A DNA stretch of 64,000 bases from Spizellomyces punctatus DAOM BR117 (lineage: Eukaryota): NCBI GenBank assembly GCA_000182565.2, contig KQ257459.1, one strand, 5' to 3'. Each line of letters begins with the position of its first letter. Positions within the stretch are counted from its first letter, which is position 1. This document shows positions 54,116-64,000 of this stretch, piece by piece. The notes under the pieces are model-generated. The model saw nothing but the letters and a program-made list of their open reading frames with translations, was not told the DNA's origin and made no database searches. A program made the translations under genes and the position numbers.

Positions 54116-55007
54116 CTATGCCTTGTGCTCATCGACATACGCAGGCTTGATCCTCGAGCTCAAGACTTGCTCAAAAGTAGGATCAACCTGCTCTGAGCTT
54201 GACACATCCATTTTCAGGTCCCTAAACAGAGAAAGTCAACATGGTGGTTATATCGCACAGCTGAAAAATGTTGAGAGCGAACCTGATCTGCCCATCCGAC
54301 AATCTGTAAACCCATGCGTGAACAGTCAAGTCTTGACCCTTTTTCCACGCATTTCGGACAATGTTTGTATGACAAACACCCCGAACGGTTCGTAGTACGT
54401 TCAGTTCGCACATCAAATCAACTTTTTCCTTTGGGTCCTTTACGGCCTCCACTCGTCGTCTGTGCTCCATATAAAAGTCTTTGATGGGTTGCAGCCAGTT
54501 GTCGAGGAGACCGAGTTGTTGGTCGGAGAGTGCGGCATGCACACCTCCACAATTGTAGTGACCACATACGACAATGTGCTTCACCTTGAGAGCTTCAACG
54601 GCGTATTGGAGAACGGAGAGGAGGTTGAGATCGCTCGTGGTAAAGGTGTTGGCAATGTTACGATGTACAAACATGTCTCCAGGACCGAGACCGACTGGCG
54701 AATGTCATTGTCAGCGAGGTCAAAAATACAAGTTGTCTTACAAGCATCCAGAAAACTCACCAATTTCAGTGGGAGGGACGCGAGAGTCACTGCATCCGAT
54801 ATACATGATTTCGGGTGCTTGTCCTTGCGCCAAAGTCTCGAAAAGACCAGGGTTTTCAGCCTGCTTTTGTTTCGCCCATGCCTTGTTGGCGTCCAGCAAG
54901 TGTCCTAGCAATTTAGGACTACTTGTTACAGGCTGGGTAACCTGGTCGGCAACTGGCCGCTCCTCGTTAGGTTTCCCATTTTTTGGATGAAAGATTCCAC
55001 TGAGCAT
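54116..55007 (-). CDS. Beta-class carbonic anhydrase; possible upstream non-AUG extension to 55112
   Basis: GQAPEIMYIGCSDSRVP, FVHRNIAN, LQYAVEALKVKHIVVCGHYNCGG, ELNV; last exon ends VDEHKA*. Confidence 0.95.
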
Positions 55008-55903
55008 GCTGATGTGTCGACGGCCTGATATTGCAGTGTACCGAGATGGGTTGCTCGCAAAGGATCTCAAGAGCGGACACACCAGCCGGCTGCTGGCTTT
55101 TATCAAAGGCAGTTTGAAGGGAGATGGAATGAACCGTTGTAGTCACAACGGCTCGGCAAGTTTGCCCAAATGAAATTGAGACTGTTTTGAAATGTAATCG
55201 AAAGGAACCCTTTATCGTTTCCTTGTTGAGATGAACGTTGAGATGAGCGGTGGGGGGGGAGAAGCTAAATAAGCAAATCGACAACGGAGATAAACGGCCG
55301 GAGCAAAGCAGCAGCAGAAGGAAAAAAAAAAAAAAAGTGAGACAAATGACGAAAGTGTGAAAATCAAAAAGGCAAGTCGCGTGTGTGATTTTAAAAGGTT
55401 GTTGTTTGTGGGGGGGAAATCGGGACGAAACAAGATTGAGTTTATTGGCAAAACGGGATTTGTTTAAAAGGGAAATTGAGTGAAGAAGGAGAATGAACGA
55501 ACGAACAACGACGACGATTATTAAGAAAATGGGGCATTGAAATGACAAGTGTGTTTATTGCCAACTGTGTTTTAGTTTATTATCTTGTCATCTGCATGGC
55601 CCATCTGGCAGCTTCATTTCCTATCGCTCTGCTGCAACACTTGTTTGATCGGAATGGGCCAAACTCTTGAGATCGATCATCTCTCCCTGGAAATCCCTCC
55701 TAGTTTTTAAAAAACCCTTGATGGTTGATGCACTGGGCGCTTTTGGGGGCAACACTTGATGCATTTACAGCAAGCGTTTCTTTAAATAGCAACAGACAGC
55801 CAAGTCATAATGTGTTGCTCTCCAACACCACACTTGTGGAGCGACGCAAACGTCCGTTTATCTAAAAGCACCACATCTATCTGGATAGCTGTGCAAACAG
55901 TCC

Positions 55904-58293
55904 ATGCGTACCACTGTACCGCCATTGAGTGCCAATTTACGCTCCAAAAGTTCCTCCTTGCATGATCTATTGTCAAGCAAAACAGAAACCAACAATGGTC
56001 TAGTCCATGAGCAGACGGGAGAGCAGCAGGAGGATGGTGGGGATATCCCAGCTTCACCTGCCGCCACACATGGAATCCACTCTTGGTCAGATAGCGAGAC
56101 ATCTGCCTACATTTCCTGGATCAATGCACTGCTCCCTCCCACTGACCTCGATCTGGCGCACCTTTTGCCCCTTACGAACGCTGAAACCTTTTTTGACGCT
56201 TGTCGGACCGGTGTCCTCCTGGCCAAACTCTTGGACAAGACCATACCGGGTTCAATACCCATGGAAAGAATCCACCGGAAACCAAAGACTGAGATTCATA
56301 TGCGAGAGAACTGTGGACTGGTCTTGGACGCTTGTCGCAAGGTTGGCGTAAAGACGCTGAATATTGGGCCTGCTGATGTGATGGCCGGTGTGCCGCATTT
56401 GTGTTTGGCATTGGTCTGGCAGATTATCAAGGTATGTAGGATGGGCCAGCGGATTCCAATTTTGCCAGACTCTGAATTCTCACTCCCGGTTTGTTGCAGG
56501 TGGGACTCATGTCCAAAATACAGGTGGATGATCCTTCCGCACCAACAGATCAGCCCAAGTCAAAAGCTGGCACATCTACTCAGGCCGTACCGCAGGACCG
56601 TGTCCTGCTGCAATGGATCAACAGAGAGTTGAAGCGCAATGGATGTCCTCGCTCCGTCTCTAATTTCGGCACAGACCTTTCTGATTCCGAATGCTATGCC
56701 CATTTGCTCTCATCCATTGGAGATGGAGGTGGCATAAATGTTACCGGGGTACTACAAGAAAGGGACTTTTATCGACGGGCAGAGATGGTTCTGGATGCTG
56801 CAGATGCACTTGGGTGCCGATACTTTGTTACTCCCAAAGAAATTGTGGCGGGCAACCGAAAGTTGAGCATGGCATTTTTGGCGGTTTTGCATGAAGCAAT
56901 GATACGATTGGGGAGACATGGCGAGCGGGACCAGGTTGCGAGACACAGGGAGACAAGCGAGACATTCGCACAACAAAGCTCGGAGATCAAGCGACTCAAA
57001 GACGAGCTAGACACCATGCGGGCCAAGATGAAAATAGTAGAGTATCAAAACGCTGAACTCCAGCAATTGGAAGGAAGGGCGATGGGTGAGGTCGGAGGTT
57101 ACAAGAAAAAGGTGGACGCTCTTCAAACCCAGGTGAAGGAACTCTTGGCCGAAAGATCAACTCTAGAGTCCGAAGCAGAAACCGCGCAAGCAGACGCAGC
57201 TGCACTCCGAAAAGAAAATGGCGAACTCCAAAAGAAAACTCGCTCCCTGAAAGAAGAGTCAGGGCTCCTCCGTGCCGAAATCAAGGCCCTTACTTCCGAA
57301 AACCGCTCCCTCCAACAGGAGCTCGACAACCTTTTGCAAGAGCTTCGGGACCAGGCCACGGAGCTTAAAGAGAAGCTTATGGAAGCTGGAGAGACGGTGG
57401 CAAGAATGACAACCGAACGAGTTAAACTTCGTGCAGAGTTGGATGAGATGACCATCGAACGAGCACAGCTCCGTCAGGAAATCGAAGCTCAGACGGCAGC
57501 TAGATATAAATTAGAGGAAGAGCTTGATATGCGACAGCATGAATTGAAACGAATCTCTGTCGTGACGGATTCAGCGATTCGCGAAAAAGAAATGCTACAC
57601 AAACGTGTGTCGGACATGGAGATTGACATTGAAGCCACTGAAGGGCTACTCCAATCCCAGGATGCTCCACCAGAGACCCGAGCAATACAAGTCGGCTTGG
57701 AAGCACTATTAGAAACCGATACAACACCTGCGATTGTAGAGGATCAACTACGATCGTCCACTGCTACTTTATCAACGTCAAAGCGACCTCGCAGTGTGAG
57801 TCTCCTTGCAAGGAACTCGACATCGGATCTGCAACTCCTAGGATCACCATTAGGTCTCCGCTCCAGAGCGTCATCCGTGACAAGCGGGACTAGCACATCT
57901 GATAGACCTCGCGTCCTTCCAGTGGCAGTGCAGATAAAGTGGCTGCTGGATGACAAGGACAAGTTAAAGGATGATTTGGAAAAGGCTTTGAACCGTGTTC
58001 GCAACCTTGAAGAGACGATAAGAATGTTAAAATCTGCGAGTGAAGCTGTTCGGTTGGCGCAAGCCATGGATCCTGTTGCGGATGTAGAGAGGCCGGTTTC
58101 CGAAGTAGTGGAACGGATGGATAAGGTTGGTTATCTTTTATTTTTTGCCTCATGCGATCCTTTCGGAAACTCAAGTTTGAAAATACTGATTCTTTTCCCT
58201 TTCAAATAGATCAATACCGAAATGCGCGCATTGACAACTAGGATTCGAACTAGACATCACCCAACTTCCAAATTGCACACTAGCATGACTTGA
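55904..58293 (+). CDS. Tandem calponin-homology (fimbrin-type) actin-binding domain plus long coiled coil
   Basis: CH1 (ETSAYISWIN...GVLLAKL...HLCLALVWQIIK), CH2 (LLQWIN...NFGTDLSDSECYAHLL...GCRYFVTPKEIVAGNRKL), then heptad-rich region. Confidence 0.85.
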
Positions 58294-58526: not shown

Positions 58527-60912
58527 TTAATAAAGACCCTCCCGATGGATTTTAAAGTCCAAATGTCCATCATCTTTCGATCCAATCCCCAACCTGGACG
58601 AATCTACACCTCCACTGCTCACCCCAGACCGATTCATGATCAATGTCGCAGGTTGCGCAATATGCTTTGCAGCCGCCTCAAGTAAGGATACATCCTTGTC
58701 CACTGTGACTGTTGCGATGCTGTAGACCGTTAGAGCTGCTACTGCCATCCAATACAAAAAGACAAGGACCCAAAAGACAATGAGAGGAGCCCAGGGAATA
58801 AAAGTTGCTTGTGTCGGTTCTAAATGTTCTTCGAAAAGTGTTGGACTCGTTGTATGGACTCCGGCTACTTGCGCTAACGATGTAGTTGCGATACTGTGGG
58901 CGTAGGCGTGAAGAACGGATTTTTCGCGGATACCAGGTGGGACGAGGGGACTTGCTTGGCCATTTGTGTACATTCGGGATGTTGTCCCAGCTAATTTAAT
59001 AACATAAAGATGAGTATATGAACTAGTAAAAAAGTAGAAACGACACCCAAGATATATACCATTGAACATTGCCCCGGATACAGCCCAAGTAGCAGACGAG
59101 TTTTGCGGAGCAGGAATCGCCGACACAACCGTCAACCGTCCTTGATTGTTTCGGTATCTCACGGGTTGCAGTACCTGCACATTGCAGACCAACAATCCGT
59201 ACATTCTTGCCCCGCCTGTATGCATAAAGCCCACTATTGTTGTTATGCCCGGCATCAGTATTCAGTTCGCCTTGGTCGACATTCCAGATCATGGACCAAA
59301 AGACAGGGAACGGGTTGTTTGGCTGCCCGCGCTGTTGCAAAGCTGTAAAGGAAGGATCAAATTCTGCGGTACCGGACTGTATATTAGATGGAGATCAATA
59401 TAACACCTTGAACGACAGGTACATACGTCCGGCATTCCATCCGGCTTGTGGGCCTTGACCAACTGTATCCGTCAGTCCCGGCTTCCCCGGACAATTATAA
59501 CCAACAGATCCGGCCGGAGGTCCATTTATGGGTTGGAACACTGTCACATTGCAGACTGGAGTAAGGTTTTCGCAAGTCACCTTGACGCCGGTCGTTTCAG
59601 CTATATAGTTGATGCCCGATGTGTCCCCGGCGGGGAGGAGGAGGGCGGTGACCTCTGGGCTTTGAGGATCAGGATCGTCCAGAGTGCGCACCTGAGCCAA
59701 ATGAAATGTCGTCAGGCTGGTATGGTTAATGAAACTTGGACATCATTCGCAGAAATCCTTTACCATATGCTTCGTGGACATGTTATTAGCGGTCAATAAT
59801 CCGTCATTCCCACCTCGCAAGATATCCATTGCACCTTGGGCATCAGCGCAACTATTGGCTACATACCTCAGGACACAAGGTAAAATCTGTTCACCCCCAC
59901 AATCAGAATAAACTGGTGCCTTCTGGCATTCATCGTCGAGTACCCTGCCCAAAGCTGATGTCACCGTCGGTCGTGACGCTGAGACGGGTACAATTTGGCT
60001 CTGTACAGCAGCATGTAGCCATATGCCTTCCACAATAGCGATAGCGTAGGTTAAAATAACCAGTGGAACAAACATGAAAACCACCACTCGTAGGAGGGAT
60101 GAGACGACTGAGCGAGACGATGTCATGCAATAGAAGAGTGCTTGCATAACTGAAAAGGGGCTTGCCGTTGCACATATGTTGGACATGAGAGTGAACTTTT
60201 GTCTTTTGTCAGTTGGTAGTCTACTGAACAGCAGGCACTTGGTCTTACCTGCTTTGGAGTAGGCAACCGTCGGTACGCTCCATTGTCATTCGATGCAGAA
60301 AATGATGCCTTGAGCCATTGGGAGCTCAAACTGTATGCTAGTGTCCCAGCCAAAAACGGCAATGTCAAGGCCGTGAACCTGTACAGCAGATAAAGTTTCG
60401 TATCATCCAATTAATGACAATCTTGGTTCCTGCAACGTCGTACCTCGACACCAAACTGGTAATAAGCAGCACTCGACCCGCAAATGCTAGAATATACAGT
60501 CCACTTGAATCAACTCTTAAAAAAGTCGCTTGCAGATAAGCAGCTAATGCAAAAGTTGCAGCGTTGGCACGCCATGTAAAGAACCGGAACCGGAAAGTGA
60601 ACATTTCTTCAAAAAGGACAACATACCAAACCCTGCAGCAATGATCATTGTCGTGAATATAATCACAACACTTGGAATCCATATCCGTGAGCGTTTGGCC
60701 TCTGCCGAGTACTGGACGGGATGTTCTTCGATTTGAATGGTGGAAGTTGAGTTGGTATGGCTTGGCTGAAGCCACAGAAATCAATAAAAATTATGGTTTT
60801 AAGGTTGCCCTCCAAATGAAAAACGAAATACGCTTGGATTTTCAGCGCCCTTTTTTGTATTTTCGGCAGTGTCGTGATGTGCGATGTTGACGGGAGCCTC
60901 GGGAGGATCCAT
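58527..60912 (-). CDS. Uncharacterised fungal multi-pass membrane protein with an apparent internal frameshift
   Basis: Multi-exon model from ATG 60912; TM segments (IWIPSVVIIFTTMII, LTLPFLAGTLAY, VFMFVPLVILTYAIAI, IPWAPLIVFWVLVFLYW); LPTPKQ motif; frame change near 59.2 kb. Confidence 0.65.
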
Positions 60913-61245
60913 ATTTGCTCAACTGTTTTCCCAATGTGCTGTCTTTGTCTTGCTTGCGTTGGCAAGTTTTTTTATGTGAAAACCGCTGTTTGTCGTCTGG
61001 CTTGCTCAGTAGGGACCTCTTTGTTTACTTTTAATTTCCTTGACCCTTTTCCGTGTCGGAGGGTTGGCTGTGCACGCGATTTTTGTCACCCAGCGCAAGT
61101 TTCAAAAGACTGTATTTTAGATGGTTTTATTGCTAAAGGCAAGTTATGATAAAGGACGGGAATTTCTGTCTAGAGTTGACACATTCCGTCTAGAGTTGAA
61201 AGCAAATTGTCCAAAGTACGGCATGTTTACATGTTATCTACAAGT

Positions 61246-63015
61246 TCATGAACCAGATGTGGTCCCAAGTGTACGTTCGACCCAACCCTCCAGATACTGA
61301 AGCAGAGTTAATGGCAGAAAACAGACAATACCACAACATGTGTTGCTATGAGATAACCCTTTTGAATCCCCACATTGAACCCGCATCTGAAAAGAATACA
61401 ATGGAAATCAAGAGTTTTGCTATACAAAAAAGGCTCGGGAAAGCATACTTACATATAGCAGCGGTGATACCCTGCAGTAAGAGCTTCATCTCCACAACAA
61501 AACCATATAGTTGGAATCCCTTTGGCGACCGGTCCAAGTGACATAAAAAGCGATGCACTCTCGCCGCCGTGTCCATCTCTGATGGTGTATCTCTGAAACG
61601 ACAAAGGCAGTCGGACAGGAGAATGATTGTACGGCGGACTTCGTCTGTGACACTGGCTAAACTGTATACGACAATAACAAGAGAGAACAAGGACGTTGCA
61701 AAGGCGTGCAAAATCATTGTGGGGACAAGGAATGACGGCAAGTTCCAATTCGAGCTAGTAAACACCTAGAAGAGTGTTTAGGGTTGAATAAAGTACTCGA
61801 CAAGGTATCAAAACAACAGTAAAGGCAGCTAACCAGCAAGATGCCATCGCCCAAATTAATCGCATGGACGATTCCAAAAATTGCAATCGCAAGTGCATTG
61901 GCGGCACAAAACTTGCGCAACTGAGTATCGGCTTTTCGAAAGTACGTCATAAACTCCTCGACATCTTGCGGGGTCGTCAAAGGCACATCGCGGCGAAGCG
62001 TTTGCCATTGGTAACAGAGTCCTTTGCACATAATGTAAACCTGCTCAAAGTGCATGAGGAGCTGAGCCATCATGTTAGAGTTGAATTGTAACTCCTTACA
62101 CGAAAGAGGAATGCATAGGTTGCTCCATCGTAAACGGTCACACCAACAATGTGCAGGAAAGTATAAAGGAACCTGACGCCGCCATGATGAATGTACTTGT
62201 AAATGTCAGAAGGGCTCCATATCCAGATCATTGGCCAAAGAGCTAAACGGGAATCTTAAATATGTAGCGGCAATGGGTTTCTCAATCAGCAAGGTTACAG
62301 TACCTGCATTCTCGTCATCTAGCTGGATCCCCACCGGGACATACCATGATATCGTCGTCCCCAAAAACGCACCCAGGAATATTGCTAATTAAAACAACTG
62401 ATCAGAATCATCCCACGGGTTCAAAAGCACATGTGTAGCATTTCCTCATACCAAACACCAATGTTTCCTCATGCCGCCGTACGGGTGCGAGAAGGCCGGA
62501 TCTTGCTGCCAAGGTAGAAAGATCATTCGGCTTTTGCCCTCGGGTTAAAAAGTGCAGAACGAGGAGGAATATCGACGTCGTCAGGATATAACTACGCAAT
62601 AAAAAAAAACACGAGTTGAAAATAGGTGACGTTTACTGTTTTCCACCTTTTCAAGAACTTACAGCACCAAGGCGAGCTGGCCTAATCCCATCATGCCTTG
62701 AACCGTCATCAACATTCTAATGTAGGCACCCAACACGACGACCACTAAGCACAAGCAGACCACGTTGACCACTTTTGCGATTTTCCGCATCATAGGCCGA
62801 CATTCTAAACATGGGTCCACCCCGAAAAGAAACGCAAGGAAGCGTGCCCCTTTGAACGTCGATAGCGAGACTGCTTGATAGTCTATTGATTCAAGATCCA
62901 ACATGGACCATGTTTTTCTACCCTTGATGTGTGTTCTCCCCAGCGAAAGGGTTTCCGGTGATGCATAGCTCGTCTCTGGATCGCATTCAACGGTTTTAAC
63001 GATGAGGAGAGTCAT
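61246..63015 (-). CDS. Gustatory/odorant-receptor-like (GRL, 7TM ion-channel superfamily) protein; 3' end approximate
   Basis: N-terminal FLAFLFGVDP; multiple TM helices; C-terminal HRFLCHLDRSPKGFQLYGFVVEMKLLLQGITAAIY. Confidence 0.7.
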
Positions 63016-64000
63016 GGTTGGGTGTCTAGCGCTGGTCCATAGGGCTATTAGTAGTTAACTGGGTTAATGTGCAAGGGTTTTTTCGTTATGGGTCGAGATG
63101 CACATCCGCGATCCGCGGTTTTAAATGTTATTTATTTCCTTGCAATAAGCTAGGTTGATTACCCAGCATTCTATTTTTAGGGATTGCCATAAAGTAACAT
63201 TCATGGATATAGAGAAGGGATTGTAATGGTTTGGCAGATCCCTCAAATGCCACAAGTGCGCCCTGCATGGTATTGACGATAATCGTACCAAGGGACCCTA
63301 AATGCTCGAAATGTTTAGGGGTAGCTTTGATTGTCATGCTTAATCCAGTTTCTTTTGAGAAAAACAAATCCCACAATCCTGGATGGTCACCCTGCAAGCG
63401 TTTACAATTCTAGATGTTTGACAATCAGTTCAAATGCAGACAAGTTAGAGGTCCTTTTTTGAATGGAATCAGAAAAGTGTGAAATGTGTAAGAGCTCACT
63501 ACCAATGCACTCCTACACAAAGAGAAAGACTGCGAGCGGGTGTGAACACTCTTGTTCTCTGCACCATGCTTGAGAGACGCGCTATAGTTACAAGAGTGCA
63601 TCACTTCAAAAAGTGCAATATGACAAAAAAAGGCGAGCCCATCGCAACGACGCAGCCGGACAGACCCCAATGTACGGTGGGTATGGGCGGTCTGCGCGGA
63701 TGAAGAAGCAAGCCCACTCTAATGTCCGCAGCGGGACACAACCAGTAATGGTCGGTGGACATGAGCCTTCTGTTCAAAAAGGCGATGGCAGATGGTTAGA
63801 GGAAGAAGCCCAAAGGAAGAACACACCTAGAATGTTGGTTGTCTTGGTTGCCATGACAACAAGAGCACAATTTAGCCATGAAAGGCAATTTGACTACGCA
63901 TTGTAGCACGTGATCTGTCAGTTGGGAAATGGCCCCCATGGAACCCACTTTGCTTGCTTTGCTGGAAGGCTTTCCATCATCGGTCTCACCCCATCTTGTG

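Follow-up and report, generated by a model that had tools for sequence, protein, structure and literature searches.

A 64,000-nucleotide stretch of contig KQ257459.1 from the chytrid fungus Spizellomyces punctatus DAOM BR117 (assembly GCA_000182565.2) was analysed here and is referred to as the window. Towards its end, on the minus strand, the window carries a seven-exon gene that runs from a start codon at 63015 to a TAG stop codon at 61348-61346. All six introns have GT..AG borders and are 59-71 nt long, and the spliced coding sequence of 1278 nt encodes 425 amino acids (aa). The translation matches exactly a database protein of the same strain (P0001, SPPG_06000), which bears the UniRef name 'Odorant receptor'. 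In the 2020 paper of Benton, Dessimoz and Moi (eLife 9:e62507), Table 1 gives SpunGRL1 as XP_016607089.1, and supplementary file 1 equates SpunGRL1 with KNC99049.1 and SPPG_06000 at a length of 425 aa. Over the part compared, to about residue 400, the SpunGRL1 sequence printed in the supplement agrees with P0001. The gene in the window is SpunGRL1, the founding gene of the 'fungal GRL' report, and finding it here is a rediscovery of a known gene. For S. punctatus and S. palustris, two fungi, that report describes one candidate gustatory-receptor-like (GRL) gene apiece, and a full-text literature search on the names of the gene returned the 2020 Benton paper only. A first-pass annotation of the same DNA had correctly stated that genes of this kind have been reported in Spizellomyces, but missed that the gene in the window is that very gene.

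The four peptide strings quoted in the first-pass annotation were all recovered in minus-strand open reading frames (ORFs): FLAFLFGVDP lies within the ORF 62659..63054, EEFMTYFRKADTQLRKFC within 61714..62205, and both LASVTDE and FLCHLDRSPKGFQLYGFVVEMKLLLQGI within 61346..61765. The exons can be joined, as the annotation had presumed, into one seven-transmembrane frame, with six GT..AG introns, 1278 nt and seven hydrophobic segments. Of the bounds it had given for the gene, 61246..63015, the upper one is the first base of the start codon, whereas the lower one falls inside the 3′ untranslated region (UTR), 100 nt beyond the stop codon. The last intron, intron 6, is in phase 1 and interrupts codon 413. 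Two introns offer a second in-frame acceptor, at intron 3 (62243-62303, minus strand) an AG 12 nt upstream (62254) that would add 4 aa, and at intron 4 (62041-62099, minus strand) one at 62061 that would add 7 aa, so that alternative splicing or mis-annotation is possible at both places. The gene model used throughout is the annotated one. A model with a 38-nt intron 4 and a protein of 432 aa was dropped; P0001 uses the acceptor 21 nt further on, which gives an intron of 59 nt.

Four public sequencing runs (X1-X4) were mapped on positions 61200-63200. X4 is an RNA run with the same species label as X2 and X3, from which about 6 in 100 reads were sampled and 439 mapped. Its reads cover the 3′ end of the gene at a depth of 73-84, and 26 of them, from 14 different start places, cross the joint of intron 6 (61386/61453). 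A loose run of T precedes 61207 in eight X4 reads and marks a poly(A) tail on the minus-strand RNA. X1 is a root metatranscriptome and contributed a spliced contig of 374 nt (62493-62935, minus strand) that joins 62663 to 62591, which corresponds to the removal of intron 1. The contig differs from the window at three positions, all three of them synonymous third-codon positions. The root contig is thus correctly spliced and nearly identical to the window, from which it follows that the gene is expressed at or close to plant roots by a very close relative of S. punctatus. The contigs from X2 and X3 are colinear with the genome, contain the introns and are probably DNA. The gene is real and expressed, as spliced and polyadenylated RNA. 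Of the complementary DNA that the first-pass annotation had proposed to build from RNA reads, the mapped RNA confirms introns 1 and 6 as well as the poly(A) site; introns 2-5 have no RNA cover in the four mapped runs.

Membership of the encoded protein in the GRL/7TMIC superfamily was judged by the criteria of Benton et al. 2020. With 425 aa the protein falls within the range of about 350-500 aa that these criteria set. A Kyte-Doolittle scan yielded seven hydrophobic segments, five of which score at least 1.6 and two between 1.2 and 1.6 (TM4 and TM7, at 1.33-1.43), and an additional weak hydrophobic segment at residues 48-66 near the N-terminus. If the N-terminus is placed inside the cell, 31 lysine and arginine residues fall on the cytoplasmic side versus 5 on the opposite side; within flanks of 15 residues the ratio is 19 to 6, which again favours the inside orientation. 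The inner loops (29, 49 and 46 aa) are longer than the outer loops (16, 39 and 20 aa). TOPCONS, as given for SpunGRL1 in the supplement to eLife 9:e62507, likewise returned seven transmembrane helices and a topology string that begins inside. The predicted seven-helix topology with a cytoplasmic N-terminus fits the inverted arrangement of insect odorant and gustatory receptors (Or/Gr) and not that of G-protein-coupled receptors (GPCRs). An intracellular N-terminus had been anticipated in the first-pass annotation and agrees with the charge bias and the loop lengths. With the insect Gr and Orco proteins (7tm_7 and 7tm_6; Class-A of the 7TMICs) SpunGRL1 therefore has in common a length of about 400 aa, seven helices, a predicted inside N-terminus and longer inner loops. 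The features of the gene and of its predicted protein are collected in the table.

Features of the SpunGRL1 gene (window positions) and of the encoded 425-aa protein (residues); helix and interface positions are predicted
Feature	Window positions	Strand	Residues	Content
Exon 1	62663..63015	-	1-117 + two bases	ATG at 63015; predicted cytoplasmic N-terminus with FLAFLFGVDP, TM1 (~79-97), start of TM2
Exon 2	62452..62591	-		remainder of TM2 (~114-132), TM2-3 loop, start of TM3; acceptor backed by X1 contig
Exon 3	62304..62384	-		TM3 (~162-180), beginning of TM3-4 loop; without RNA cover in mapped runs
Exon 4	62100..62242	-		TM3-4 loop, TM4 (~220-238); annotated form, as in P0001
Exon 5	61834..62040	-		long TM4-5 loop (EEFMTYFRKADTQLRKFC), TM5 (~288-308)
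Exon 6	61453..61765	-		TM6 (~329-347), LASVTDE, TM6-7 loop with helix 7a, most of TM7
Exon 7	61346..61386	-		final 13 codons (YAGSMWGFKRVIS), stop TAG
3′ UTR	61207..61345	-		poly(A) site near 61207
7tm_7-aligned stretch	61460..61705	-	329-410	E 0.0057
Predicted subunit interface	61463..61636	-	352-409	
TM1			79-97	strong
TM2			114-132	strong
TM3			162-180	strong
TM4			220-238	weaker
TM5			284-309	strong
TM6			329-347	strong
TM7			394-414	weaker

Because the published support for the assignment of the fungal proteins to this family is thin, we made independent tests of membership. In supplementary file 7 of eLife 9:e62507, the trRosetta alignment for SpunGRL1 consists of 1 sequence. The HHblits search with SpunGRL1 in supplementary file 3 retrieved, among the first 30 of 132 matches, SpunGRL1 itself, and the others among these 30 are short hits of 18-69 residues with a probability of 0.82 or less. 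In our comparison of the C-terminal 117 aa with Pfam, 7tm_7 (PF08395) was the sole family at E up to 10. Residues 21-102 of this C-terminal part align in order to positions 278-355 of the 370 positions of the family model, a region that comprises TM6-TM7 in both. The ORF of exon 6 alone also matched 7tm_7 (E 0.023, 14.5 bits), and the other exons gave unrelated matches only, at E 0.058 or worse. The likeness shared by SpunGRL1 and the insect Gr and Orco proteins over TM6-TM7 is sub-threshold. Pfam DUF3537 (PF12056), the family of plant proteins that eLife 9:e62507 places in the same proposed superfamily, found no match at E up to 10 in the full-length protein, the C-terminal part or the ORFs, and in this SpunGRL1 differs from the plant members. 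Of the terminal resemblance to gustatory receptors and DUF3537 proteins that had been read from the sequence, what stood is the 7tm_7 likeness over TM6-TM7, at a score below the family threshold; the TM7 motif is absent and DUF3537 is not matched. The overall interpretation given in the first-pass annotation fared alike: the gene is a chytrid GR-like seven-transmembrane gene, and a canonical TM7 motif and a Pfam DUF3537 match were not borne out.

The nearest clusters to the whole protein in the ESM Atlas have a similarity of 0.96 and share 212-215 of 256 features with it; 7tm_7, Trehalose_recp or DUF267 is found on 10-47% of their members, and the ten best named hits all share family or clan. 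When the part that matches Pfam was excluded, residues 1-308 were still placed next to clusters of 7tm_7 (0.94), Trehalose_recp (0.91) and DUF3537 (0.89), with nine of ten hits in agreement, and in the DUF3537 cluster the family is found on 63% of members. In the calibration, shuffled proteins reached 0.95 or more in about 1 of 100 cases, and a value below 0.9, such as that of the plant DUF3537 neighbour, counts as a lead only. The Atlas neighbours as a whole are leads and not proof.

The family to which SpunGRL1 belongs is small. The supplement to eLife 9:e62507 contains, as orthologue, SpalGRL1 (TPX68946.1) of S. palustris with 426 aa. As read from the supplement text, it has the same junction sequences at the positions of introns 3 and 4; read unaligned, it differs by substitutions that are scattered and lie mostly within the first 40 residues. 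SpalGRL1 did not turn up in the word-index search or in phmmer, which was run on 1.84 billion representatives. Three proteins came out of the phmmer search with E up to 0.001: the query itself, and P0002 and P0003 with 184 and 322 aa. The latter two stem from a Logan assembly, each listed with one contig of 6525 bases, and are 36% identical to P0001 (BLASTP) over residues 196-318 and 36-121, respectively. P0002 has insertions located at or close to positions where the window gene has introns, and P0002 and P0003 most likely represent read-through fragments of a single homologue with introns, from another organism. Both are fragments, in which the C-terminal TM6-TM7 part was not recovered. The GRL family may reach beyond the genus Spizellomyces. 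A word-index search with P0001 found P0001 itself only, a three-sequence profile found P0002 and P0003 only, and scans of metagenome contigs yielded no relative among 57 pattern matches for P0001 and 87 for P0002. The insect Gr and Or families are large. The two Spizellomyces genomes, by contrast, have one GRL gene each according to eLife 9:e62507, and tblastn with P0001, P0002 and P0003 found no second GRL gene in the 64-kb window, all other hits having E 0.6 or more.

AlphaFold2 gave unusable models of the protein, both from the single sequence (predicted local distance difference test, pLDDT, 40.9; predicted template-modelling score, pTM, 0.32) and with three sequences (pLDDT 41.1, pTM 0.25), and such low confidence is expected given the lack of alignment depth. 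Comparisons that started from the low-confidence model were uninformative: Foldseek against PDB returned 0 hits at E up to 0.001 and 103 weaker ones to unrelated helical proteins, and VIA-align returned generic helical proteins only. We also predicted how four copies of the part from TM4 to the C-terminus (residues 200-425) assemble, together with three controls. The four copies scored 0.71 (0.72, 0.71 and 0.71 in the individual runs) versus 0.00 for the best of the three controls, with a partner pLDDT of 72 and agreement between runs in at least 86% of contacts. In the calibration, which was made with two copies and not four, values at this mark were obtained for 21 of 30 solved homo-pairs and none of 23 single chains, and among eukaryotes for 17 of 29 and none of 30. 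The subunits are predicted to form a ring with head-to-tail contacts, in which residue 384 of one subunit touches residues 359/360 of the next. The predicted interface is made up of the cytoplasmic end of TM6 (352-367), helix 7a (373-389), TM7b (394-409) and residues 292 and 296 of TM5. This interface would match the anchor-domain and pore arrangement reported for the Orco structure (Butterwick et al. 2018). The predicted homotetramer supports a channel-like assembly and agrees with the superfamily criterion of subunits held by a cytoplasmic TM5-7a anchor, with TM7b at the axis.

Taken at a probability of roughly 0.7, our preferred explanation is that SpunGRL1 adopts the 7TMIC fold and assembles, as a homotetramer, into a ligand-gated cation channel. 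It would be a distant member of the superfamily to which the insect Or/Gr and plant DUF3537 proteins belong, with a cytoplasmic N-terminus and seven helices across the membrane, of which TM4, TM5 and TM6 would be long. Four subunits would be held together by the cytoplasmic ends of TM6 and by helix 7a, TM7b would surround a central axis, and the assembled tetramer would act as a cation channel that is opened by a ligand.

Several observations weigh against this explanation, and many of them speak for the rival that SpunGRL1 is a lineage-restricted seven-helix membrane protein of the Spizellomycetales that is not homologous to insect Gr/Or and could have any function, from transporter to scaffold. 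At E up to 10 the full-length protein has no Pfam match at all, and the 7tm_7 score of the C-terminal 117 aa is 16.5 bits, below the gathering cut-off of 26.6. No match reaches a curated threshold, and under this rival the resemblance would be one of topology and hydrophobic composition alone. No Orco or Gr chain was found in a PDB sequence search at E up to 10, and no animal or plant 7TMIC by phmmer among the 1.84 billion representatives, in which the family is tiny, with three members including the query. The motif TYhhhhhQF, which sets the insect Gr/Orco proteins apart from SpunGRL1, is not conserved: the TM7 pattern [TS][YF]x5QF has no match in the protein, and the nearest string, IYAGSMWGF at residues 412-420, is split by the last intron and keeps only Y and F. 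In eLife 9:e62507, one of the four motif positions is given as conserved in the chytrid GRL, the 3′ intron of the chytrid gene is not at the animal position, and SpunGRL1 was left without an analysed model because its estimated TM-score of 0.111 is below the authors' limit of 0.17. The Foldseek screen in the 2023 preprint of Himmel et al. missed the chytrid 7TMICs, and AlphaFold2 yielded no fold. The pass of the tetramer test may moreover reflect solved Or/Gr tetramers that the model has memorised, in which case it would speak for likeness and not for binding; the tetramer and Atlas tools come from the same model family, and their two results are therefore not independent. On the other side, the plant superfamily members largely lack the TM7 motif as well (eLife 9:e62507), so that the motif is not obligatory for the superfamily. 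Against a non-homologous protein speak the sole Pfam match, to 7tm_7, in order and from C-terminus to C-terminus, and the Atlas neighbours, which indicate Gr/DUF3537 clusters for each of two parts of the protein. An inside N-terminus combined with long inner loops is the unusual arrangement of Or/Gr proteins, and the predicted homotetramer uses TM6, 7a and 7b. We regard a lineage-restricted protein as unlikely.

Far less probable is a classical GPCR, that is, a seven-transmembrane receptor with an extracellular N-terminus. The seven hydrophobic helices would suit it, and one Atlas cluster has been auto-named 'G protein-coupled receptor', yet the Pfam families of that very cluster are DUF267, Trehalose_recp and 7tm_7. 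Neither the full-length protein nor its C-terminal part matched a GPCR family in Pfam at E up to 10, and the charge ratio of 31 to 5 speaks for a cytoplasmic N-terminus, contrary to the GPCR orientation. It is hardly credible that the gene is decaying or mis-annotated, an annotation pipeline having assembled it from chance ORFs. Although four of the six introns (2-5) are without RNA cover and introns 3 and 4 have alternative in-frame acceptors, the RNA is spliced and polyadenylated, the six GT..AG introns have lengths of 59-71 nt, all three strain differences are synonymous, S. palustris has an annotated orthologue of 426 aa (eLife 9:e62507), and a 36-40% identical relative occurs elsewhere. 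A distant 7TMIC that assembles into a ligand-gated tetrameric channel is the explanation that we prefer over these alternatives.

The neighbouring genes were also considered. On the minus strand at 54222-55142 lies a gene for a beta-class carbonic anhydrase, of which the ORF 54222-54704 matches Pfam Pro_CA with E 6.7e-43, and a second exon-like ORF is located upstream at 54738-55142. The product of a plus-strand gene at 55889-58209 has two calponin-homology domains (E 2.8e-16 and 1.9e-13) and, after them, a coiled-coil-like stretch of about 400 aa; it is probably a cytoskeletal linker. Long minus-strand ORFs of 244, 115, 180 and 141 aa with hydrophobic stretches occupy 58527-60790; a Pfam search at E up to 0.01 gave nothing for them, and they probably belong to a multi-exon gene that is arranged tail-to-head with the GRL gene. 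These three downstream neighbours, the carbonic anhydrase gene, the calponin-homology gene and the gene at 58527-60790, provide no functional link to the GRL gene.

Within the proposed superfamily, support is weakest for the fungal branch, which is outside the published modelling, missed by the later structure screen and below the Pfam threshold. To what has been published on it we add RNA support for the gene model, a homotetramer prediction for a previously unmodelled protein and one divergent relative beyond the two species in print. At the level of listings, literature searches on zoospore transcriptomes of S. punctatus and on chytrid chemotaxis receptors returned nothing on this gene, its ligands or its expression by life stage. 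If SpunGRL1 is a channel, the sensory role in zoospores put forward in the first-pass annotation is a speculative and somewhat doubtful proposal. The most far-reaching version, a homotetrameric ligand-gated cation channel that would guide zoospores, for instance in chemotaxis or in the decision to encyst, and whose family would be wider among zoosporic fungi, as the 36-40% identical relative hints, is improbable when all its parts are taken together. S. punctatus is genetically transformable, and the homotetramer prediction together with the evidence for expression makes the gene a reasonable target for experiment. If such a function were true, SpunGRL1 would be the first 7TMIC with a sensory function demonstrated outside animals.

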